64,000 nucleotides of DNA, from the NCBI GenBank assembly GCA_963761305.1, contig CAVXGK010000002.1, positions 2,144,001-2,208,000 on the forward strand, in the 5' to 3' direction. Every line of letters starts with the position of its first letter. Position 1 is the first letter of the stretch. Shown one piece after another: positions 23,169 through 40,023 of the stretch. Made by a program: the position numbers and the translations under genes. The DNA is from an uncultured Gemmatimonadaceae bacterium (GTDB taxonomy: Bacteria > Gemmatimonadota > Gemmatimonadetes > Gemmatimonadales > Gemmatimonadaceae). The notes beneath the pieces are model-generated. The model searched no databases and was not told the origin of the DNA. It saw nothing but the letters and a program-made list of their open reading frames with translations.

Positions 23169-25319
23169 CTAATTGGCCCATAGCCCCTCGATCGTCGAGA
23201 TGCTGAGCGGCAGCCGGACGATGAACGTCGTTCCGACGCCGAGCGTGCTCTCGACGCGGACCTTGCCGCCGAGTTGCTCGGTGAGCCGGCGCGCGATGCT
23301 GAGTCCAAGGCCGGTGCCGCCGTAGGAGCGAGTGCGCGACTGGTCGAGTTGGCGGAAGTCTTCCCAGATCGCCTCGATCTCGTCGGGGCGAATGCCGACG
23401 CCCGTGTCGGACACGCGCACGATGACGGCGTCGCTCTCGCGCTCGACTTGCAGCCGGATGGCGCCGCGATTCGTGAACTTCACGGCGTTCGACAGCAGGT
23501 TGAGGAGGATCTGCTTGAGCTTCGTCTTGTCCGTCTGGAGCGGCGGGCAGTGCGCGGCGATCACCTTGCGGAACGCGAGCCGCTTGGACGTCATCATCGG
23601 CTCGACCTGCTCCGCCACCTCGTTGATGAGATCCTCGAGGATGACGCGCTCGACGTGGACGGGCATCTTCCCCGCCTCGATGCGCGACAGGTCGAGGATG
23701 TCGTTGATGAGCGAGAGGAGATGATGCGCCGCGGCGCGGCTGCGCGTGACGTAGTCGCGCTGCGCTTCACTGAGCTCGCCGGCGATTCCATCGAGAAGCA
23801 GCGCCGAGTAGCCGATGACGGCGTTGAGTGGCGTGCGCAGCTCGTGCGACACGCTGGCGAGGAAGTCGGTCTTGAGCTTGTTGGCCTTCGCCAGCTCCTC
23901 GGATTGCCAGAGCAGTCGTTCGTTCTGTTGGGCGAGGTCCGAGGTCGCGGCGACGATGCGTCCTTCCAGCTCGCCGTTGAGCTGTTTGAGCGCGTCGTAG
24001 AGGCGCTCGTTCTCGACCTGTTGCGTGAGGTCGTGCAACACGGAGACGATGGCGATCGCTTCGCCGCGATCGTTGCGGATCTTGCCCGATACGACTTCCA
24101 CGGGGAGCGACGCGCCGTTCATCGGATGCACCAGCGACATGCGCTCTCGCTTGAGCCGCTGGTCGGTGAGCGCGAAGTCCGAAATGAACGACGTGAACAT
24201 CGTGTCGTTCTGCCGCACCGCTTGCGACACGCGATAGCTGCGCGACCCGCCGCGCGGGCCGTGAAAGAGCTGCTCCGCCTCGTCGTTCATGAGGATGATG
24301 TTGGCGGCGCGGTCGGTGACGAGGATCGGGTCGGCGACGTTCTCGAGAATGAGATTGAGCCGGTCGCGCTCATCGGTCGCTTCGATCTCCGCTTGGCGCA
24401 CGCGCTGTACCTGCCGCTCCAACTCGTTCGACGCGCGGCGCAGGTCGGTCACGTCGCGCAGCACCGAGAGCATCGCGTCGTCGGGACCCATGCGCTCGGC
24501 GAGCGGATGGGTCAGTACTTCGAACAGCAGGTCGTGGCCTTCGTCGGGGTCGACGAGATTGAGCTCGCGCGATCCGCCGGCGTTCGAACCGCTGCTCGTC
24601 GTGCGCGAAAGAAAGGAGTTGAAGAGCAGGTTGTTGACCTCGACGGCGCGCCGGCGTCCCTGCGAATCGACGTCGTTCGCGAAGAGCAGATTTTCGGCGC
24701 GCTTGTTCTGGACGACGATGTTGTTCCACGCGTCGGTGATCACGACCGGGTCGGGCAGCGAATCGACCATTTGCTGGAAGCGGCCGCGCTCCTGAATCGT
24801 GCGCTCGTGGCCGCGTTCGACGTGCAGGTGCGCGGCGACGCGCGCGATGACCGGCCCGGCGTAGATCACGATCGCTGCCGCGTCGTCGACGACGGGAGGC
24901 GACAGCGCGACGTCCACGATCACGACGCCGCCCGGCGCGCCGGCGAAGCGCGGCATCGGCAACGCCGTCCATTCGTCGAAGCGGATGGGGCTCGGCGAGG
25001 GCGGCGCCGCGTCGGCGACGACCGGCCGCTGCGCAATCGTCGCCGCCATCCAGGGATGCGCGCGCTCGGCGATCACGAGTTCGATCGGCGCGTCGTCGAG
25101 CCCCGAGTGCGACACGAGCACAAGTTGGTGGTCCGCCGCGTCGAATCCGAACAGACACGCGCGACGCGCGCCCGTCGCCGACAGCACGTGACCCAGCAGG
25201 AATCCGGCGGCCGCGTCGAGGTCGGGCGCCTCGGCCAGCGCGGCCAGCAACGCGAGCTGAGTCCGATCGCTCGCCGGACGGGCGCGGCCAACGGACATCG
25301 ATTCCACCGTCATGACCAC
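23169..25319 (-). CDS. Cytoplasmic GAF-like/PAS/PAS histidine kinase
   Basis: Two PAS repeats (SLPDPVVITD...RDVT; NVADPILVTD...HDLT), FLASVSHELRTPL, NLLSNAVKFT, DTGVGI, GGTGLGL. Confidence 0.92.
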   Translation of the reverse strand: MVMTVESMSVGRARPASDRTQLALLAALAEAPDLDAAAGFLLGHVLSATGARRACLFGFDAADHQLVLVSHSGLDDAPIELVIAERAHPWMAATIAQRPVVADAAPPSPSPIRFDEWTALPMPRFAGAPGGVVIVDVALSPPVVDDAAAIVIYAGPVIARVAAHLHVERGHERTIQERGRFQQMVDSLPDPVVITDAWNNIVVQNKRAENLLFANDVDSQGRRRAVEVNNLLFNSFLSRTTSSGSNAGGSRELNLVDPDEGHDLLFEVLTHPLAERMGPDDAMLSVLRDVTDLRRASNELERQVQRVRQAEIEATDERDRLNLILENVADPILVTDRAANIILMNDEAEQLFHGPRGGSRSYRVSQAVRQNDTMFTSFISDFALTDQRLKRERMSLVHPMNGASLPVEVVSGKIRNDRGEAIAIVSVLHDLTQQVENERLYDALKQLNGELEGRIVAATSDLAQQNERLLWQSEELAKANKLKTDFLASVSHELRTPLNAVIGYSALLLDGIAGELSEAQRDYVTRSRAAAHHLLSLINDILDLSRIEAGKMPVHVERVILEDLINEVAEQVEPMMTSKRLAFRKVIAAHCPPLQTDKTKLKQILLNLLSNAVKFTNRGAIRLQVERESDAVIVRVSDTGVGIRPDEIEAIWEDFRQLDQSRTRSYGGTGLGLSIARRLTEQLGGKVRVESTLGVGTTFIVRLPLSISTIEGLWAN

Positions 25320-25349
25320 GACAATCTTTCCTGCGCCAACCAGCGTCCG

Positions 25350-26156
25350 CTAGTCCGCCTTCTCCAGCTTCAGCTTGATGTTGACGAAGTTGTAGGGCGG
25401 CCATGGGCCGGAGTACTTGAACGAAAGCACGTCTTCGTACCTTCGGCTCGTCTCCTTCACCCGGTCGTCGAACGCTTGTTCCTGCGCGCGTTCGACGAGG
25501 AACGCGGCGTTGAGAATCATGCGATCGCCGATCGGCTTGTTCGACCGGCTCGCCACCGCGACCTGCTTGAGCGCGTCGTGCACGTCGGCGACGTATTGCG
25601 AGCTCATCTCCTCGAGCGCCGAGTCGACGAGACGGCCCAACTGCATGCGGGCAAAGTACGTGGACGTCGTCGTGTGTCGGCTGATTTCGTCCTTGAGTCT
25701 GCTGATCTCGTCGTTCTGTCGCTCGAGATTGGCGATGACCTTCTCGCGGTCCCAGAGGACTTTCAGTCCGAACTCGATCTTGTCCTGCATCTTGTCGAGC
25801 ACGTCACTGAACGCCTGATACGTCGAACGAAGGAGCTCCGTCACGTCTTCCTCGGAGCGGAAGACGGTGCCGAACGACATCGGGATGACCGTGAATTCCT
25901 TCATCACCGTTTCGTTCACGAACTCGTGCGCCAGAACGTTCTCGCGCGTGGGGTCGTAGATGACGATCGGCGTGTCACTCACCACCGCGGCGAGATCCTG
26001 GAACGCCACGGTAAACACGCGCTGTCCGCCGCCGATGCCGATAGCGCCAAAGTCACGCTGGCGCTCGCTGCGGACGATGCAATACACGTATTTTCCACCC
26101 TCTACCCCGCCCGCCGCCAACACCGGCGCCGCTTCTACGATCTGGGGCTCAGGCAT
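25350..26156 (-). CDS. GvpL/GvpF-family protein
   Basis: KYVYCIV, LAAVVSD, AHEFVNE, VIPMSFGTVF, EFGLKV, LNAAFLV, SGPWPPYNFV. Confidence 0.9.
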   Translation of the reverse strand: MPEPQIVEAAPVLAAGGVEGGKYVYCIVRSERQRDFGAIGIGGGQRVFTVAFQDLAAVVSDTPIVIYDPTRENVLAHEFVNETVMKEFTVIPMSFGTVFRSEEDVTELLRSTYQAFSDVLDKMQDKIEFGLKVLWDREKVIANLERQNDEISRLKDEISRHTTTSTYFARMQLGRLVDSALEEMSSQYVADVHDALKQVAVASRSNKPIGDRMILNAAFLVERAQEQAFDDRVKETSRRYEDVLSFKYSGPWPPYNFVNIKLKLEKAD

Positions 26157-27965: not shown

Positions 27966-29261
27966 TCAGACCGGCACGCCGCGGCGCCGCAGGAGCGCGA
28001 GAACCTCCTCGCTTGCCTGTATGCCATCGAGCTTTGCCGGGATCAACGCGCCGCCGTCGAGCAGCGTGTCGACGACGCCCGCGTAGTCGGCGGTTGGTCG
28101 TCCCCACCCGTGGAGCGATCCGTAGAACGCCCAATCGAGGGGGGTCCCGTCGTGATCCGCGTCCCGGGTCCCGGTCGGCGCGCCGCGACTGATGAGCAGG
28201 GTCGCGATCTCGACGTCGCCGTGGAAGCCGGCCCAATGGAGCGCCGTTACCCGCCTCGGCATCGCAGCGCCGGAAGGCCAGCCCGCATCGAGGAATAACC
28301 GCACCGCGTTCGCGTTGGACGCCTCCGCCGCGATCGGCAAGCGCGCGAGCTCATCTTCTCCCAACGTCTCGACGATTCCCGCGTGCTTCGCGAGCAACGC
28401 CTTCGCGTCACGCTCCTGGCCCAGCTCGAGCAGCACCGCGAGCGCGAATGCGGCCCGCGTGCGCGACATCAGGAGCGCAAACACGTCCTCGTGCTTGAAG
28501 TCGCGCGCGATCTCGTGCGCGGTCTTTTGGCCGCCGAGCGTCCAGGTGTAGATCGTGCCGCCGGCGCGTGGATCTCGTTTGGGGAAATACCGCTCGTTGA
28601 CGACAGTTCGCACGCTCGCCGGCGCGTCGTCGAGGAATTTCCGCACCAGATCCACGTCGCCGAGGGCGGCGGCCATCAGGATGTCGGTCTTGCCGCCGCG
28701 CGAGACGAGAAAGCGCGAGACGTCCTGTCGCTCTCGAATTGCCCATTGGGCAGCGGTCGATTCGTGATCCACATCGATGGCGTCGATGTCGGCGCCGGCG
28801 TCGAGGAGGAGGCTCGCCACTTCGACGTTCGCCGCGTAATGAAGCGGGAACTGCCCGTCGCCGCCGCGCGCATGAACGGCGGCGGGATCGGCGCGCAGAA
28901 TGCTCTCGACTTCGTCGAGCCATCCGAGGCGCGCCGCCGCGTGCAGCGTCAGCACCGCACCTCGCTCGCGAAGAAACGGCACCAGCGACGCGTCGGCCGA
29001 GTCGATTGGACCGAAGCTCCCGGCCCACCAATGACTGCGCGCGTTGACGTCGGCGCCGGCGCGAACGAGGACGTCGATCATCTCGCGCCGGTTGTGCTCG
29101 ACGGGACGCCGCAGAATCGTCCCGCCGAACGATTCGCCGGGCGCGTTGTCGTTCAGCCGCGATGAAAGCGACGGATCGGACGCGAGGATCGCCTTGGCGC
29201 GCTCGACATCATCGCCACGGACAGCGGCCGCCAGGTCGGCGAACGCGTCGTCGCTCGTCAC
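27966..29261 (-). CDS. Ankyrin-repeat protein
   Basis: Repeats GADVNA, LHAAARLG, GQFPLHYA, TALHWAGFHG, GTPLDWA. Confidence 0.88.
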   Translation of the reverse strand: MTSDDAFADLAAAVRGDDVERAKAILASDPSLSSRLNDNAPGESFGGTILRRPVEHNRREMIDVLVRAGADVNARSHWWAGSFGPIDSADASLVPFLRERGAVLTLHAAARLGWLDEVESILRADPAAVHARGGDGQFPLHYAANVEVASLLLDAGADIDAIDVDHESTAAQWAIRERQDVSRFLVSRGGKTDILMAAALGDVDLVRKFLDDAPASVRTVVNERYFPKRDPRAGGTIYTWTLGGQKTAHEIARDFKHEDVFALLMSRTRAAFALAVLLELGQERDAKALLAKHAGIVETLGEDELARLPIAAEASNANAVRLFLDAGWPSGAAMPRRVTALHWAGFHGDVEIATLLISRGAPTGTRDADHDGTPLDWAFYGSLHGWGRPTADYAGVVDTLLDGGALIPAKLDGIQASEEVLALLRRRGVPV

Positions 29262-30280
29262 CGGCGAGCGACTCCGAGCCCGGGAGCGTCGGGAATGGCG
29301 ATGCGCCCCCGCTCGATCGTCGCGCCGCGGTACGGATCGTCAGAAAGCAACGCAGCCCCATCAAAGTCGGCGTAGTCCAAGAGCGGCGCGAAGTGCGCCG
29401 CGGCGGTGATTCCGAGGCTCGTCTCGATCATGCAGCCGGCCATGACGAGCATGCCGTGTGCCCGGGCGGTCGCGATCATCTTGAGCGCTTCACGCAATCC
29501 GCCGCACTTCGAGAGCTTGATGTTGATCCCGTCGACGATGCCGGCCAGTCGCGCCACATCGGTGGGCCCGATGCAGGACTCGTCGGCGATCACCGGCAGA
29601 CGCGACCGCTCGCGTACGAACCTGAGCCCCTCGAGATCGTGCGCCGCGACGGGCTGCTCGACGTACTCGACGCCGCACTCCACCAACACGTCGATCATAC
29701 GCAGCGCGTGCTTGGGCGTCCACGCCGCGTTGGCGTCCACTCGAAGCACCTTGTCCGGCGCCGCCTGTCGCACCGACTGAATGATCCGCTCGTCGCGATC
29801 CGTGCCCAGCTTCACCTTGAGAACCGGATACGGCGCCGCGTCGGCGATGCGCTTGCGCAGCTCGTCATCGTTGGCCGCAATCGCGATCGTGAAGCTCGAG
29901 AGCGGCGCGCGCGCGGGATCGAGGCCCCACATTTTGTAGACGGGGACTCCGAGCCTCTTGCCGGCGAGATCATGCAACGCCGCGCTGATCGCCGACTTGG
30001 CCGAGCCGTTGAACCGGAGCGCGCGCCCCAAGTCGGCTTCGATGTCCTCGAGGTGCCACGGATCGGCCGCGGTGACGACCGGCGCCAGACGCTCCAGCGC
30101 GGCGACGGCCGTGTCGACGGTCTCGCCGTAGAAGCGATTCGGCGCGGCCTCGCCCCAACCTTCACAGCCGTCGTCGTCGATCAGCCGAACGCGAACGAGG
30201 CGATGTTCGCTCGCGCCACCGCGCGCGATGACGAACGGGTGCGTCGTGTGAACCGTCGAGGTGTCGTGCTCGAGCCTCAT
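29258..30280 (-). CDS. L-Ala-D/L-Glu dipeptide epimerase (enolase superfamily)
   Basis: PFVIARG, GWGEA, KVKLG, RVDAN, EQP, ADES, NIKLSK, GCMIET, DFDG; start MRLEHDT. Confidence 0.92.
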   Translation of the reverse strand: MRLEHDTSTVHTTHPFVIARGGASEHRLVRVRLIDDDGCEGWGEAAPNRFYGETVDTAVAALERLAPVVTAADPWHLEDIEADLGRALRFNGSAKSAISAALHDLAGKRLGVPVYKMWGLDPARAPLSSFTIAIAANDDELRKRIADAAPYPVLKVKLGTDRDERIIQSVRQAAPDKVLRVDANAAWTPKHALRMIDVLVECGVEYVEQPVAAHDLEGLRFVRERSRLPVIADESCIGPTDVARLAGIVDGINIKLSKCGGLREALKMIATARAHGMLVMAGCMIETSLGITAAAHFAPLLDYADFDGAALLSDDPYRGATIERGRIAIPDAPGLGVARR

Positions 30281-31284
30281 CGCCCCGAGAGCAATCCCGC
30301 GCGACGCACGACCGCCGCCATGCGATACTGCTGCGAGCCGTCGGCCGTCGATCGCAGGAAACCGATCAGCGCGTCGGCAAGGTCGTTGCCTCGCGCATAG
30401 CGCGCCGACGGCGCCTTGGCGAGGCACTTCATGACGATTTCCGAAAGTGACGGCGGCACGAGCGGGTTCGCCGTCGACGGTGCGACGGCGTTGTCGTGCA
30501 CCTGCTTGTAGCTCACCGAAAACGCGTCGGCAGCGTCGAACGGCGGGATGCCGATGAGCGACTCGTACAACAGAATGCCGATGGCGTAGATGTCGCTGCG
30601 ACCGTCCACGAGCTTGCCCATCGCCTGTTCGGGCGACATGTAGTGCGGCGTGCCCATCGCGCGGCCGGTCGCCGTGAGCCGGCCGTGAAAACGCGCCGTG
30701 GCGATCCCGAAGTCGGTGATGATGGCGTTCCCGTCTTCGTCGAACAGGACGTTGTCGGGCTTGACGTCGCGATGCACGACGCCGCGTCGATGCGCGTAGT
30801 CGAGCGCGCACGCCACCTGCGCGGCGACCGCCGCCGCCGTGAGGGGCTCGACCCGCCGGTTGTTCTGAATGAGGTCCGCCAGCGCGCCGCCTTCGAGGAA
30901 CGGCATGACCGTGTACACGACGTCGTCCGTCGCGCCGTAGTCCAGGATCGGGCAGATGTGCGGATGCACCAGCTTGGCCGCCGCCTCCGCTTCGCGCCGG
31001 AATCGCTCGGCGACTTCGGCGTCGCGCGCCAGATGCGGATGCAGCACCTTGATCACGACCTGCCGCTCGAGCTGCGCCTGCTCGGCGATGTAGACCTCGG
31101 CCATGCCACCGCCGCCGTGGCGGCGGAGCACGCGATACCGGCTGCCCGTCGCGCGGCGAAGTCGCGTCAGCTCGTCGTCCGGGCGCTCGAACGCGCCGCG
31201 CTTGAGCTCCGGCAGCTGCTCGCCGCAGCGGTCACATACCGCCGACGACGCGCGATTCCAGGTGCCGCACTGAGGACAGAACAC
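30277..31284 (-). CDS. Ser/Thr protein kinase with N-terminal zinc ribbon
   Basis: FCPQCG...CDRCG, GGGGMAEVY, VIK, HRDVKPDN, DFG, GTPHYMSPE; no TM; start GTG 31284. Confidence 0.93.
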   Translation of the reverse strand: MFCPQCGTWNRASSAVCDRCGEQLPELKRGAFERPDDELTRLRRATGSRYRVLRRHGGGGMAEVYIAEQAQLERQVVIKVLHPHLARDAEVAERFRREAEAAAKLVHPHICPILDYGATDDVVYTVMPFLEGGALADLIQNNRRVEPLTAAAVAAQVACALDYAHRRGVVHRDVKPDNVLFDEDGNAIITDFGIATARFHGRLTATGRAMGTPHYMSPEQAMGKLVDGRSDIYAIGILLYESLIGIPPFDAADAFSVSYKQVHDNAVAPSTANPLVPPSLSEIVMKCLAKAPSARYARGNDLADALIGFLRSTADGSQQYRMAAVVRRAGLLSGR

Positions 31285-31288
31285 TCGG

Positions 31289-31927
31289 TCAGCCCCCGAA
31301 CTGCATTTGCACGAAGTCGTACGGCGCCCACGGCCCTGTGACGTCGAACTTGAGCGCGTGGTGAGCCTCGTGCTGTTCGGCCACGGCGCGCATGAAGTCC
31401 TTCCAGTGGTCGCGCTCGACGAGAAACGCGGCGCTCGACACGCGCCCGGTGGACGCGTCGAACATGAGTGGAATCGCCATGACGGCGTTGCGCCGAAGCG
31501 CGCGCACCGCTTCGTTCGCGGCGTTGGCGACGTCGGCGTCCGCCGCACGGCTGGCGCCGGCGCCATCGTGCGTAATGTGCACGCGAGCGGCGGCGCGATC
31601 CTCGACAAACTCCAGCGCTCCCGTCAGGGACACGTAGTGCAACTCCATCCAGCGGGTGATTGCGTCGGCCGACCGAAAGACGACGCCGACCGGTGCGGGT
31701 AGAATCGGCGCGGTGTGAAAAACGGCGTCGACGATGGCGCGGTGGTCTTCGATCCGGTCCTTGTCGACGTCGTCCAGCGCAAAACTCTTCTGGTCAGAGA
31801 CGACCGCCCCGACGTCGCGATACGAGACGAGTCGGCTTCCGACCGTCGCGCCGGGCACTTCGGGCAGGGCGTGTCCGTCGGACAGGACAATTCCGTGGAG
31901 CAGAAGCGGCGTCTGGGATGGCGGCAT
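31289..31927 (-). CDS. Divergent GvpL/GvpF-family protein ending in FGG
   Basis: VGAVVSD, HRAIVDAVF, ILPAPVGVVF, AAFLV, TGPWAPYDFVQMQFGG; start MPPSQTP. Confidence 0.8.
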   Translation of the reverse strand: MPPSQTPLLLHGIVLSDGHALPEVPGATVGSRLVSYRDVGAVVSDQKSFALDDVDKDRIEDHRAIVDAVFHTAPILPAPVGVVFRSADAITRWMELHYVSLTGALEFVEDRAAARVHITHDGAGASRAADADVANAANEAVRALRRNAVMAIPLMFDASTGRVSSAAFLVERDHWKDFMRAVAEQHEAHHALKFDVTGPWAPYDFVQMQFGG

Positions 31928-31932
31928 GGAGT

Positions 31933-32859
31933 TTATTCTAGAGCCCGCATGTGCACGACGCACGCCGCCGCCAAACGTTCCGGCGCGTAGCCCCCCTCGA
32001 GCGCGCTCACCACGCGTCCAGCACACCACCGGTCTGCTCGCTCGACCACGAACCGCGTCAGCTCGGCGACGTGCTCGAGCTCGAGCGTGAATCCGCCGAG
32101 TGGGTCTCCGGCGAGCGAGTCGAAACCGGCGGAGACGAACACGACGTCGGGGACGAAATCGGCTGTCGCCGCGTCGATCGCTCGCTGAAAGGCGTCGACG
32201 TAGACGCGCGGGGCAAGTCCCGCGCTCATCGGGACGTTCCAGATCGTGCGGTGAGGCCCGCGATCCTCGGCGGCGCCGGTGCCCGGGTACCACGGCCATT
32301 GGTGCATCGAGACGAAGCGAATGTCGCGCTCCTCCTCGACGAGCGCTTGCGTGCCGTTGCCGTGGTGCACGTCCCAGTCGACGATCAACACGCGCTCGGC
32401 TCCGTGTCTTTGTCGTGCGTAGTGCGCGCCGACCGCCACGTTGCCGAAGAGACAGAAACCCATCGCGCGCGAGCGCACCGCGTGATGCCCCGGTGGACGC
32501 ACGGCGCAGAAGCTTCGTCGCGGACCGTCGCCAAACGCGAAGTCGACACCGTCGAGCACCGCACCGGCCGCCGCGGTGGCCGCGTCCCACGAGCCGTCGC
32601 TCACGACGGTGTCAGGATCGAGACGGCCGCCGCCTGCCGCGGCGTACGATTTCACCTTCTCGATGTAGGCGCGATCGTGTGCGAGCACGAGCTCATCGAC
32701 CGATGCGTGGCGCGACTCGACGTGCTGAATGCGGTGGAACAGCTCGGGATCGTCGCGCAGCGCTTTGGGAATCGCCCGAAGCCGGCCCGCGTGTTCGGGA
32801 TGACCCCAACCGGTGTCGTGCCGCCCGCAATCGGAATTCGAGATGAGCGCGATGGCCAC
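31933..32859 (-). CDS. Histone deacetylase family (Zn-dependent deacylase)
   Basis: HPE, RPPGHHA, GFCLFGN, DWDVHHGNGTQ, SAGFD, LEGGY; start near GTG 32859. Confidence 0.94.
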   Translation of the reverse strand: MAIALISNSDCGRHDTGWGHPEHAGRLRAIPKALRDDPELFHRIQHVESRHASVDELVLAHDRAYIEKVKSYAAAGGGRLDPDTVVSDGSWDAATAAAGAVLDGVDFAFGDGPRRSFCAVRPPGHHAVRSRAMGFCLFGNVAVGAHYARQRHGAERVLIVDWDVHHGNGTQALVEEERDIRFVSMHQWPWYPGTGAAEDRGPHRTIWNVPMSAGLAPRVYVDAFQRAIDAATADFVPDVVFVSAGFDSLAGDPLGGFTLELEHVAELTRFVVERADRWCAGRVVSALEGGYAPERLAAACVVHMRALE

Positions 32860-32867
32860 GGGTGGGC

Positions 32868-33203
32868 CTACCGAACCGGCCGCCTCCGCCGAAACATCAT
32901 CAGCAAAATCGATCCGTCGACGACGCCGCAATCGCCCAGCGACGCCATTTCGTCGAGGATTTCCCAACCGTGGAGCTTGACCACCATCTCGTCCGGCGCC
33001 GACTCGGGATGGAGCGCGTGCAGCGCGGCGTTCTTGACCTCGATCACCGGCTGCGACGACGACGCGACGACGCGGACCACGTCCCACACTTCCGGCATCT
33101 CGACGCGAATCGTGATCGCGGCCGCGCCTTGCGGGGCCAGGTTGATCGTCGAGCCGCGTGTGCGCAGTGTCGTCACGAACGGAGCGGACGTTGGCTCGCT
33201 CAC
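32868..33203 (-). CDS. Small protein with putative ubiquitin-like (beta-grasp, EsaB/YukD-like) fold
   Basis: ITIRVE..VVRV....PVIEVKNAAL....VKLHGWEILDEMASLGDCGVVDGSILLM matches the ubiquitin pattern (G..L.D..TL...GI..GS.L.L); basic tail RRRRPVR, no GG. Confidence 0.65.
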   Translation of the reverse strand: MSEPTSAPFVTTLRTRGSTINLAPQGAAAITIRVEMPEVWDVVRVVASSSQPVIEVKNAALHALHPESAPDEMVVKLHGWEILDEMASLGDCGVVDGSILLMMFRRRRPVR

Positions 33204-33481
33204 GACGCGTCCTCGGCGGCGGGATTGAGCGTCGAGAAGAATCGCGACACCTGCATGTCGAACAGGTAGCTCGATCCGGTCACGCGCGTGCCGCCGTTCG
33301 TGGAGGCGGCGACGCCGATGACGATCTCCTCCCCGCCTTGGCCGCGAAAGGTGCAGAACCCCGGGCCTTCCTCGTCGATGAACGCCGGGTACAGGGACGG
33401 GCGATTGGCGAAGAACACCTTGGCGCGGGCGAGCACCTCGTCGGGGCTCGCCGTGGTCGTGGTTTCCTGAAGAGTCGGCAT
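33200..33481 (-). CDS. Small hypothetical protein
   Basis: 93-aa ORF overlapping the Ubl-like gene by 4 nt (GTGA); alpha/beta-like pattern. Confidence 0.7.
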   Translation of the reverse strand: MPTLQETTTTASPDEVLARAKVFFANRPSLYPAFIDEEGPGFCTFRGQGGEEIVIGVAASTNGGTRVTGSSYLFDMQVSRFFSTLNPAAEDAS

Positions 33482-33494
33482 TGGATGCGAAGGA

Positions 33495-34841
33495 TCAGTG
33501 GGCCGGCGTCATGCGTGGGGCGCGCAGCGGAACGTCGAGCCGGAAGGTAGAGCCCTGTCCAACCATCGACGTCACCGTGATGTCGCCGTGCAGGAGCCGA
33601 GCAAGCCGCCGGCCGAGCGCGAGACCGAGACCGGAACCGCCGTACTCACGGGTGAGCCCGCCGTCGACCTGGTGGAATTCGTCGAAGATCGTGGTGATCG
33701 CCTCGGCGGGAATGCCGATGCCGGTGTCGGTCACGAGATAGACCACGCGCCCGTTCGAGATCTCGAGCGACACGCGCACGTGACCGGCCCGGGTGAACTT
33801 GAACGCGTTGGCGACGAGAATGCGGATCACCTTCGACAACATGCGGCCGTCGCCGATCATCGGCGGCACGATGTCGGGCTCGGAGACGTCCAGCGTGACG
33901 TCATCGCGTTTCCCCTTCGCCGCCTTGATCGCGTCGCGCAACGGCGTGCGCGGATCCAATTCGGCGAGCTCCAGGTCGAGCGCGCCGCGTTTCAGCGCCG
34001 TGAGCTCGAGCAGGTCGCCGATGAGCGTGAGCAGATGCTCGCTCGCCGCGTTCACCTGCTGGAGCGTGTGGATCTGCTCGTCGTTGACGGGGCCGGCGAC
34101 GCCTTCCTCGAGCAGGGCCGTGTAGCCCATCACCGCGGTGAGCGGCGTGCGCAACTCGTGCGAGATGTTCTGGAGGAACTGGTCTCTCACGCGGCGAGCC
34201 TCGAGCGCGTCGGCGTACTGCTGCTCGAGCTGCACGTTGGTCGCGGTAAGCGCGGCGTTGGCTCGTTTGAGATCTTGAATGAGGCGCGACTTTTCGGCCG
34301 TCGCCGCCATTTGATCTGCCACCATTCGGACGAGATGCCGCGTGTCGCGACCCACGGCGTTGGGCGACGAGAAGTAGAACGTGACCGTGCCGAGCACCGC
34401 GCGCGGCGTCTGCAGCGGCAGCGCGACGAACGAGCGGAAGCCGAGCTCTTTGGCGACCTCTCGCCAGTCGGCGAGCGCCGGATCCTGGAACACGTCGAGC
34501 ACTTCGATCGTGCGCCGCTCGGTGGCCGCGAGGCCGCTCGGACCGTGACCGAGCCGCACGCGCATCTGGTTGAGAAACTTCGCGTATCGGCCGGGCCAGT
34601 TGTGGACCGCGGCGAGCCGCATCAGGTCCGTGCCTTCGTCGATGACGTAGACGCAGCCGAACGACGCGCCGATCAGCGGGCACACGCGATCGAGCGCGAA
34701 TTGAAAGACCTCTTCCGGGCGCTCGGCGGTGATGAACGCGTGGACGATCTCGCGAGCGGCCATCAGCTCGCGCAACCCGACGTCACCATCGGGTGTTTGA
34801 CCGCGGAAGCGCTCGGACGTCGTCGACACTGGCGTCGTCAC
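33495..34841 (-). CDS. GAF-domain histidine kinase
   Basis: GAF region (GHGPSG, FRSFVALPL), FLQNISHELRTPL, NAFKFT, DTGIGI, GGSGLGL. Confidence 0.92.
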   Translation of the reverse strand: MTTPVSTTSERFRGQTPDGDVGLRELMAAREIVHAFITAERPEEVFQFALDRVCPLIGASFGCVYVIDEGTDLMRLAAVHNWPGRYAKFLNQMRVRLGHGPSGLAATERRTIEVLDVFQDPALADWREVAKELGFRSFVALPLQTPRAVLGTVTFYFSSPNAVGRDTRHLVRMVADQMAATAEKSRLIQDLKRANAALTATNVQLEQQYADALEARRVRDQFLQNISHELRTPLTAVMGYTALLEEGVAGPVNDEQIHTLQQVNAASEHLLTLIGDLLELTALKRGALDLELAELDPRTPLRDAIKAAKGKRDDVTLDVSEPDIVPPMIGDGRMLSKVIRILVANAFKFTRAGHVRVSLEISNGRVVYLVTDTGIGIPAEAITTIFDEFHQVDGGLTREYGGSGLGLALGRRLARLLHGDITVTSMVGQGSTFRLDVPLRAPRMTPAH

Positions 34842-34887
34842 GTTAGAGGAAACTAGACGACAGGTGGGCGGGCGGACACCCGTCCAC

Positions 34888-35571
34888 CTACTTTTTCGGC
34901 ACCGTCAACGTTCGAATCTCAACGCGATGCACGAGCACGGACGGTGGGGTTGCGATGATCGACGCCACGGCGTCGGCGACGTCGTGCGCGGCGAGGGCCC
35001 AGCTCGAATTGTCACGTTCCGAGAACGACGTCGACACGGAGCCCGGGTTCACCACCGACACCTTCACCCCGTAGTCGCGCAGCTCCAGCATCAGCGATTC
35101 GGCGAAGCTGTTGGCGGCGGCCTTGGTCGCGGCGTAGGCCGTGCCACCGGCAAATGGACTTCGCCCGGTGATCGATCCGATCACCACGACATGGCCGGAT
35201 CGCCGCTCGACCATGGCCGGCACGACCGCGCGCGTGACGTCGAACAGCGCGTTGAAGTTGAGGTCGACCATTTGCATCCATTGCTCGCGCGTCAGCTCGA
35301 GCAGCGGCTTCAGGACGCCCATCCCGGCGTTGTTGACGAGAACCTGGGCGTCGATTCCGGTCAGGGACGACTCGACCGCGCGATTGTCCGTGATGTCGAT
35401 CGGGATGGGCCGGCACGAACCGCCGGCCGCCTCGATTTCCTTGCCGAGCGAATCCAGCTGATCCGCCGACCGCGCCACGGCGACGATGTCATACTCCGTG
35501 GCCAGCCGTTTGGCGACCGCTCGGCCGATGCCGCGAGATGCTCCCGTGACGACCGCGATCGGTTTGGGCAT
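34888..35571 (-). CDS. SDR-family oxidoreductase
   Basis: TGASRGIG, NNAG, YAATK, NPG. Confidence 0.93.
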   Translation of the reverse strand: MPKPIAVVTGASRGIGRAVAKRLATEYDIVAVARSADQLDSLGKEIEAAGGSCRPIPIDITDNRAVESSLTGIDAQVLVNNAGMGVLKPLLELTREQWMQMVDLNFNALFDVTRAVVPAMVERRSGHVVVIGSITGRSPFAGGTAYAATKAAANSFAESLMLELRDYGVKVSVVNPGSVSTSFSERDNSSWALAAHDVADAVASIIATPPSVLVHRVEIRTLTVPKK

Positions 35572-39272: not shown

Positions 39273-39632
39273 ATGTCATCATCGTCTAAACGGGTCCGCG
39301 AACAGGCGGTCGTCTACCTCGGCCAGCGGGATCGCGCCCTGCTCGAGAATCTGGCCAAAGAGACCGGCCTCTCCCGGACCGAACTCTTCCGCCGAGGGCT
39401 CTGGGCACTCGCCGCACAGACGTTCGGCGGCAGGCAGTCGTCGGCGCTGGAGTACCTCATCACCAACGCCAGCGATGCCCAGGTGCCGCCGGACCTTTCC
39501 GAGCGCGCCGACGACTATCTCTACGGCGGCGGCTACGACGCGCGGGTCGTGCACGAAGGCGAGACGGAAGCGCAAGACGCCAGGCCCGCGCCGCGAAAAC
39601 GAAAGGCGGCCAAGCGTGCGCGTCCTCGTTGA
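39273..39632 (+). CDS. Antitoxin, CopG/RHH-type (VapB-like)
   Basis: QAVVYLGQRDRALLENLAKETGLSRTELFRRGL RHH pattern; DLSERADDYLYG tail; overlaps the PIN gene. Confidence 0.8.
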   Translation: MSSSSKRVREQAVVYLGQRDRALLENLAKETGLSRTELFRRGLWALAAQTFGGRQSSALEYLITNASDAQVPPDLSERADDYLYGGGYDARVVHEGETEAQDARPAPRKRKAAKRARPR

Positions 39633-40023
39633 CACGAGTGCGCTCCTCGCGCTCGCCTACGCGCGAGACCAGTGGCACGCGCGAGCGACCCGCGCCGCAC
39701 GCGCGAACGCGTCGTCGGGCGTGCGCTACGTCGGCACCACCTTCGTCCTCGGCGAGTTCCACGCACACCTCCTCTACCTGCGTGGTCCGGTCGAGGCGCG
39801 CGAGGCGATCACGCGGCTCACCGCCGATCCGACTCACGAGTGGGTCGGGGTGGACGCCGACCTCGTGCAACACGCGACGGCGCGCTGGCTCGCGCGCTTT
39901 CCCGATCAGCGCTTTTCGCTCGCCGACGCGGTGAGCTTCGAGATCATGCGACGCGAGCGCATCACCCACGCGTTCGCGTTCGACAAACACTTCGAGACCG
40001 CGGGCTTCGCTCTCGTGGAATGA
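39616..40023 (+). CDS. vapC: PIN-domain toxin (VapC-like RNase)
   Basis: VLVDTSAL, D.WH, VLGE, FSLADAVSF, FAFDKHF. Confidence 0.9.
   Translation: MRVLVDTSALLALAYARDQWHARATRAARANASSGVRYVGTTFVLGEFHAHLLYLRGPVEAREAITRLTADPTHEWVGVDADLVQHATARWLARFPDQRFSLADAVSFEIMRRERITHAFAFDKHFETAGFALVE

Follow-up and report, generated by a model that had tools for sequence, protein, structure and literature searches.

Two adjacent small-protein genes, one for a ubiquitin-fold protein, in a compacted chromosome segment of a Gemmatimonadaceae bacterium

The window, a stretch of 64,000 nucleotides (nt) from an uncultured Gemmatimonadaceae bacterium, carries on its reverse strand a tightly packed run of genes in which two small proteins are encoded between a histidine kinase and a deacylase. 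One is a ubiquitin-fold protein of 111 amino acids (aa), referred to here as Ubl, and the other is a 93-aa protein, s93b, one of two paralogues (s93a and s93b) of a family termed s93. A first-pass annotation of the sequence had grouped six genes of the run into a signalling and modification module with a GvpF/L-fold protein at its center. The invariant unit in this segment is instead the s93-Ubl pair, the only one, and the GvpL/F gene occurs in about half of the family.

The gene run and its two small proteins

The six annotated genes are present and co-oriented between 30277 and 34841, separated by 13, -4, 8, 5, and 4 nt, and Pfam matches agree with the domain identities proposed for them, the zinc ribbon remaining below cut-off. 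The run itself is longer than annotated and consists of eight genes, as 4-nt overlaps lead on into a dipeptide epimerase gene and then an ankyrin-repeat gene. In the list below, the 65 loci are the neighborhoods of relatives of Ubl.

33495-34841, reverse strand: GAF-HisKA-HATPase histidine kinase (Pfam), with H-box and ATP-box motifs intact
33200-33481, reverse strand: s93b, a standalone 93-aa protein of predicted KA1/TBP-like fold, without a Pfam match (model pLDDT 87.4)
32868-33203, reverse strand: Ubl, 111 aa, ubiquitin fold by model, ending in RRRRPVR, with matches to YukD (E 3e-4) and DUF2604 below cut-off
31933-32859, reverse strand: Zn-dependent HDAC-family deacylase/amidohydrolase (Pfam Hist_deacetyl, E 1.5e-84, and motifs)
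31289-31927, reverse strand: short member of the GvpL/F family, reduced in its central region (Pfam GvpL_GvpF, E 1e-26)
30277-31284, reverse strand: Zn-ribbon Hanks-type Ser/Thr kinase (Pfam Pkinase, E 1.6e-46; DZR below cut-off)
29258-30280, reverse strand: dipeptide epimerase of the enolase superfamily (Pfam), part of the packed run and of a class-wide block
27966-29261, reverse strand: ankyrin-repeat protein (Pfam), found only in the 5 closest of the 65 loci

The run's enzymes belong to known families and are unremarkable within them; the deacylase and both kinases have intact catalytic motifs. The ankyrin gene, last in the run, was added recently. Judged from the gene layout, the run is likely to be co-transcribed because such tight packing is uncommon; of the 4258 genes predicted by a rough gene caller, 141 fall within the 21 runs of this kind (at least six members, spaced -30 to 20 nt apart). 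A promoter scan at the head of the run found nothing. An 11-bp hairpin lies at 34862-34889 between an SDR gene and the GAF kinase gene, with a T run on the forward-strand side only.

The proposal that the 111-aa protein adopts a beta-grasp fold is borne out by its model (pLDDT 87.9) and by two fold searches on 32868-33203, which place it with the ubiquitin type. Foldseek returned 295 matches at E up to 1e-3, led by BilA (8tyx, E 1.4e-5), and the second search (VIA) gave Z scores of 11.9-10.2 across the top 50, nearly all of them ubiquitin, SUMO, or UBL proteins, with ISG15 also matched. A protein that can be conjugated or can carry sulfur ends in a glycine, usually as GG, exposed or behind a short cleavable tail; the window Ubl has no glycine after its last strand and ends in RRRRPVR. 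This ending recurs in 125 of the 265 matches in the fetched loci, RRRRAVR in 26, and a terminal glycine in six (one of them GG), all from two families of another order (f5 and f6). Some Ubls of that order (L087:7876-8151, L093:7919-8218, and L095:7905-8204) have a conserved aromatic tail with a terminal RG, KG, or GG. No E1, E2, or JAB gene is found among the called genes of the window or of the 65 loci; the MoeB gene of the window's own genome lies on another contig, and a single JAB match, below cut-off, lies elsewhere in that genome.

When 1.84 billion representatives were searched with a profile of Ubl, 261 sequences matched at E up to 1e-3. Among the 150 matches listed, short members of the family predominate, and nine are long proteins with many ubiquitin-like repeats. 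All but one of the 65 loci are titled Gemmatimonadaceae, Gemmatimonadales, or Gemmatimonadota, the remaining one being titled just "bacterium", and the matches in the ESM Atlas are hypothetical Gemmatimonadota clusters only, plus one DUF2604 cluster at 14%. Ubl, nearly always a single-copy gene like s93b, was not found in 15 genomes from four further families (f4, f7, f8, and f9), even with a broad profile included, and no relative was found in viral contigs. Neither s93 nor Ubl matches a Pfam or NCBIfam model above cut-off, and named records describe both as hypothetical.

The model of s93b has a beta-alpha-beta4-alpha topology, that of a KA1 fold. A fold search on 33200-33481 was led by the CIPK14 regulatory domain at Z 9.3, Flpp3 at 9.1, and the Chk1 KA1 domain at 9.1, followed by SRPBCC halves and BamC; Foldseek gave nothing at E up to 1e-3. 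Because the SRPBCC-half and BamC domains score about as well, the model points to a fold in common with KA1 rather than to membership of the family; no KA1 profile matches s93, which is standalone and without a kinase fusion. Residues 87-165 of the Thermus MoaD-related protein 1V8C also match (Z 7.4, rmsd 2.2, 69 residues aligned), a match of fold alone, with no profile match at the s93 locus to PF09189, the C-terminal domain of 1V8C.

Distribution and order of the genes

Each gene was searched for in 201 genomes of the phylum, with counts that omit the window's own genome. The own family (Gemmatimonadaceae, f1) contributes 38 genomes and two sister families 100, together 138 Gemmatimonadales genomes, and tallies based on coordinates cover 39 family genomes with the own one included (G155, an unpublished genome, is one row). 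Family genomes are kin, and hence their counts are not independent; "not found" refers to these searches, of which that for the deacylase was strict (E 1e-75). Gene order was read in 95 loci fetched from the 100 sister-family genomes, chosen because s93 and Ubl both matched there, in the 65 loci of Ubl relatives, and in a separate set of 20 long sister-family loci.

Three of the six genes are spread across the order: s93b occurs in 38 of 38 genomes of the own family and 99 of 100 of the sister families (137 of 138), Ubl in 37 and 98 (135 of 138), and the deacylase in 37 and 78 (146 of 201 genomes overall). The other three were not found, or gave one weak match, where these stay in place. The GAF kinase is present in 30 of 38 family genomes, the Zn-ribbon kinase in 37, and the short GvpL/F in 18; in the sister families the GAF kinase and the GvpL/F have none of 100, and the Zn-ribbon kinase has one weak match there, the only one among the other 162 genomes. 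All six are found together in 14 of 39 family genomes and in none of the 100 sister-family genomes, and these counts do not support a dedicated six-gene system. They are contiguous in only two of the 39, the own genome and a congener.

A single post-translational signalling module of the Gemmatimonadaceae, centered on GvpL/F and with two kinases added to an older core, would account for the gaps of only -4 to 13 nt, for the order of histidine kinase, s93, Ubl, deacylase, GvpL/F, and kinase held in nearly all family loci, for the GvpL/F gene lying within 80 nt of the Zn-ribbon kinase gene in 18 of the 19 family genomes with both, and for the intact catalytic motifs. Against it, GvpL/F was found in just 19 of 39 family genomes and the kinase in 38, and seven genomes of other orders have it without the kinase. 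The Ubl-deacylase junction is direct in 20 of the 39 family genomes, stretched to ∼7 kb in 14, and split over different contigs in three, and the deacylase and GvpL/F genes are immediate neighbors in 5 of 19. Orthologues of the GAF kinase sit at other sites in seven genomes of other orders, the run lacks any receiver gene, and HDAC-family relatives include small-molecule amidases. Such a module is very improbable on this evidence, and the six genes are likely not one signalling machine, since besides the own genome a single close relative has them in this exact form. In relatives the genes are not dispersed, yet they do not travel as a unit either. The fallback offered by the annotation itself, conserved synteny of unrelated genes, fits best; glyS and priA, each in 19 of 20 loci, show linkage as tight as that of the deacylase. 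The six-gene module is not to be pursued as a unit. An anti-phage system was likewise considered and rejected, as PADLOC matches the Zn-ribbon kinase alone and through generic kinase models.

The GAF kinase is at this site only in Gemmatimonadaceae. In two genomes (G086 and G089; L128:9263-9751) its frame is reduced to a GAF domain of ∼220-230 aa that ends just before s93. In four loci (such as L032:2341-2769 and L044:7899-8192), but not here, the position of the GAF kinase is immediately preceded by a small gene resembling a receiver (Response_reg E 3e-5, below cut-off), possibly the cognate partner of the kinase. The four cysteines of the Zn-ribbon kinase are invariant in 25 of 25 sequences. 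The deacylase has the motifs PPGHH, DWDVHH, GFD, and EGGY, which supply the HH, DxH, D, and Y of the Zn-dependent HDAC family, and its relatives in the PDB include lysine deacylases and small-molecule hydrolases.

The short GvpL/F is a PF06386 homolog that hhalign aligns to full-length GvpF (99.6%, 201 columns), with PDB relatives 6l5d and 4qsg. Its middle is ∼40-55 aa shorter than that of GvpF/GvpL, and it scores 30.6 with the NCBIfam GvpL model against a cut-off of 200. Genes of the gvpA family occur only at G000:C1:1.626-1.628 Mb, in a gvp cluster on another contig, and the short form is an orphan paralogue away from that cluster; 17 genomes carry it without a match to full-length GvpF/L (the search being for full-length GvpF/L, not gvpA). 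Since it is missing from about half of the family, it cannot be a hub. Positions 23169-26156 (reverse strand) of the window encode full-length GvpF together with a PAS histidine kinase, apart from the gvp cluster at G000:C1:1.62-1.63 Mb, and in L060, L120, and L123 gvp genes and a PAS kinase lie in the same segment, just upstream of purA-glyS. The gvp cluster also encodes a 631-aa P-loop ATPase (G000:C1:1623244-1625139), ArsA-like by eye.

The segment as a whole shows three layers of gene order: a class-wide block of deacylase, short GvpL/F, epimerase, and priA, an order-wide s93-Ubl pair, and two kinases that are here in Gemmatimonadaceae only. The 20 long sister-family loci mostly run glyS ... 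s93, Ubl, deacylase, (epimerase), priA, with the deacylase present in 20, glyS and priA in 19 each, and the epimerase in 14, and none has either kinase or GvpL/F. The deacylase follows Ubl directly in 34 of the 95 sister-family loci, after 150-500 nt in 56, and otherwise in five, and is thus no more than 500 nt away in 90. Several sister-family loci (such as L068:9590-9832 and L077:9582-9848) encode, between Ubl and the deacylase, a hydrophobic protein of 80-90 aa whose C-terminal helix is basic. The short GvpL/F of other orders was read in seven loci. All seven have priA nearby, six have an M24 peptidase, five the deacylase, and four the epimerase, and none contains s93, Ubl, or the Zn-ribbon kinase. 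The class-wide block can be followed in L111:7267-12728 and L114:6528-11575 as deacylase, methyltransferase, (CorA), M24 peptidase, short GvpL/F, epimerase, and priA. Its enzymes suggest peptide or amino-acid recycling, a possible lead for the orphan GvpL/F. The orphan itself offers a clue to the function of the GvpL/F fold away from gas vesicles.

The run in the window is a compacted piece of this old glyS-to-priA segment of the Gemmatimonadales chromosome. The compact form in this genus would have arisen by loss of intervening genes, namely a 7-kb MoxR block, the methyltransferase, and CorA, if the direction of change is read correctly. Where fetched, the 7-kb insert consists of MoxR, DUF58, BatA, DUF4175-like, and DUF4159 genes. 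In L009:10336-17420, as in many family members, these and a further gene stand straight after Ubl; in L038, L047, and L125 the block lies upstream of s93 instead. The block is apparently missing from the own genome, where BatA, the DUF4175-like gene, and the last gene were not found. A MoxR operon as obligate partner of the pair was rejected, being beside it in 24 of the 65 loci but in 0 of the 20 sister-family loci. Two short overlapping genes at 39273-40023 (forward strand) of the window, lying between glyS and a YpdA-like reductase gene, resemble by eye an antitoxin and PIN-domain pair and recur in 6-7 loci only.

The s93-Ubl pair and its probable role

The s93 and Ubl genes are adjacent in 38 of 38 family loci, 95 of 95 sister-family loci fetched, and 65 of 65 loci of Ubl relatives, and never interrupted, whereas every other junction of the segment is interrupted in some genomes. 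In f5 and f6, Ubl lies at an unrelated site and still follows an s93-family gene, in six of six loci. One Gemmatimonadota record (P0281) joins the two, with s93a as residues 1-90 and Ubl as residues 118-206. Fusion searches, each scoring ∼8000 candidates, returned for s93 two long matches that look mis-extended and for Ubl, besides this clean fusion, a single s93/Ubl/MoxR read-through that resembles a frameshift. The mean charge of s93 is -2 (acidic) and that of the Ubl tail is +4.9, which hints at docking of the tail. Mean-field coevolution over 253 paired loci (effective 210), an underpowered test, gave a top s93-Ubl z of 5.6 against 5.2-8.5 in three shuffles, with the intra-chain signal weak too, and a z of 6.9 for s93-deacylase in comparison.

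The explanation we favor, and consider reasonably probable, is a non-covalent s93-Ubl adaptor pair with a housekeeping role and with the deacylase as first candidate client, set within conserved synteny. Ubl would work like YukD/EsaB or TmoB because, by ubiquitin chemistry, the lack of a terminal glycine should exclude adenylation and conjugation. It would be bound by s93, its conserved RRxPVR tail may dock on an acidic partner, and the deacylase encoded next door would be the first client to consider. Apparently, Ubl represents a bacterial family not described before, one that is non-conjugatable, keeps a fixed partner, and sits in otherwise ordinary synteny. No description of the pair was found in the literature covered, from which subscription papers and supplements, which could hold one, were mostly absent.

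Several observations weigh against this explanation. Gene order is strongly conserved across the order, and adjacency alone is therefore weak evidence of shared function, for s93-Ubl as for other neighbors. The P0281 fusion is a single record and may reflect a lost stop codon. The paralogue s93a, of no known family, is a core gene without an adjacent Ubl in Gemmatimonadales, and is present in a family where no Ubl was found; therefore, s93 proteins can work without this Ubl. In the own genome s93a lies at G000:C2:434726-434995 (forward strand), and it is found in 134 of the 138 genomes of the order and as a single copy in 160 of 201. Both kinases come close to fixation in the family, at 30 and 37 of 38 genomes, and there may be a functional link at family level. 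Finally, a tree of 41 s93 proteins has a two-way split (98/98) in which the Ubl neighbor of Gemmatimonadales groups with the MoaD neighbors, and the Ubl neighbor of f5 and f6 groups with the dehydrogenase-linked paralogue. A swap of paralogues is not established by this tree, since a topology uniting all Ubl-adjacent s93 proteins in one clade survives the AU test (p 0.09); bootstrap support had also not fully stabilized.

A stronger version of the synteny argument holds that everything here, s93-Ubl included, reflects neighborhood inertia in a slowly rearranging segment, the small proteins having unrelated housekeeping jobs. The equal retention of glyS and priA (19 of 20 loci) speaks for it, as do s93 paralogues that lie without Ubl beside a helicase gene or, for s93a in the loci read, beside pyruvate dehydrogenase and inositol-phosphate-synthase-like genes. 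It is nevertheless unlikely, given the one junction that is never interrupted, the re-occurrence of Ubl after an s93-family gene at an unrelated site in another order, and the existence of one fusion.

A different origin is raised by the Gly-ending Ubls. The pair could derive from a sulfur-carrier or conjugation system in which s93 binds beta-grasp carriers and an ancestral Gly-ending Ubl was charged by a MoeB-type E1, the Gemmatimonadales version being disarmed. In the two other-order families, all six Ubl orthologues end in RG, KG, or GG, five of the six loci have a MoeB/E1 gene no more than about four genes away, and a JAB-like gene, also on the other strand, was called in two; moreover, a second s93-family gene, of the s93b type, precedes moaD-moaE-moaA in eight of nine such loci fetched from f5, f6, and f8, and the s93 model matches 1V8C as described above. 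The GG ending is, however, found in only one of the six, MoeB is on the opposite strand with other genes between, and the fold of Ubl is ubiquitin/SUMO-like, with MoaD not in its top 50 matches. No sequence link of s93 to PF09189 was found, a Z of 7.4 falls within the common range, and the own genome's moaD follows an IHF gene with no s93 between. This origin is accordingly regarded as remote in likelihood.

More speculatively, and with low credence, s93 proteins could be undescribed core KA1-like receptors for beta-grasp proteins in Gemmatimonadetes, one paralogue lying by MoaD and either by Ubl, once fused to it. The Ubl of Gemmatimonadales would have exchanged its glycine for poly-Arg and become a non-covalent recognition tag linking s93 to the deacylase and, in Gemmatimonadaceae, also to the Hanks kinase. 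Such an arrangement would be a bacterial equivalent, split over separate proteins, of the kinase/KA1/UBL regulation of eukaryotes.

Described bacterial ubiquitin-type proteins are mostly sparse defense or stress modifiers, or secretion adaptors, and Gemmatimonadales is an abundant soil order. As a near-universal single-copy protein with a basic tail in place of glycine and a Gly-ending sister clade, Ubl provides a natural test case for the movement of a Ubl between conjugated and non-covalent use.

Comparison with known systems

The short GvpL/F is homologous to GvpF/GvpL over 201 columns, and differs in lying outside a gvp cluster and in its shortened middle. The KA1 domains of CIPK, Chk1, SAD, MARK, and AMPK have the same predicted fold and size as s93 (Z 9.3, 9.1, 8.5, and 7.6). 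KA1 domains bind acidic lipids through basic patches; s93, in contrast, is standalone, bacterial, and net acidic, with 7-12% identity. In Thermus 1V8C, a MoaD beta-grasp is presumably joined to a C-terminal domain with the fold matched by s93. No sequence similarity to s93 was detected in 1V8C, and its beta-grasp domain is of the sulfur-carrier type, unlike the ubiquitin type of the window; PMC1796856 lists 1V8C as a MoaD protein.

Among ubiquitin-fold proteins, YukD is standalone, not conjugated, and found with an ESAT-6 export system (PMC1779556). Ubl resembles YukD/EsaB in being standalone, in weak YukD matches in 32 of 41 members (E up to 0.05), and in having a Ser/Thr kinase nearby. In contrast to that family, its PF08817 score is 21.9 bits against a cut-off of 27 (best member E 3.7e-6, none above cut-off), it has a conserved poly-Arg tail and a KA1-like partner at its side, and its locus lacks an FtsK-type ATPase. 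No WXG100 gene was found in the own genome, which is 93% complete, where the control matched in 3 of 14. BilA is the top Foldseek match of Ubl, and weak DUF2604 matches in 25 of 41 members extend the likeness to BilA/BubA. The Bil and Bub operons carry E1, E2, and (mostly) JAB genes (PMC11601603). The Ubl locus differs in lacking all three, and Ubl itself in having no terminal glycine and no PADLOC match, and whereas Bil and Bub are sparse, Ubl is a near-universal single-copy gene.

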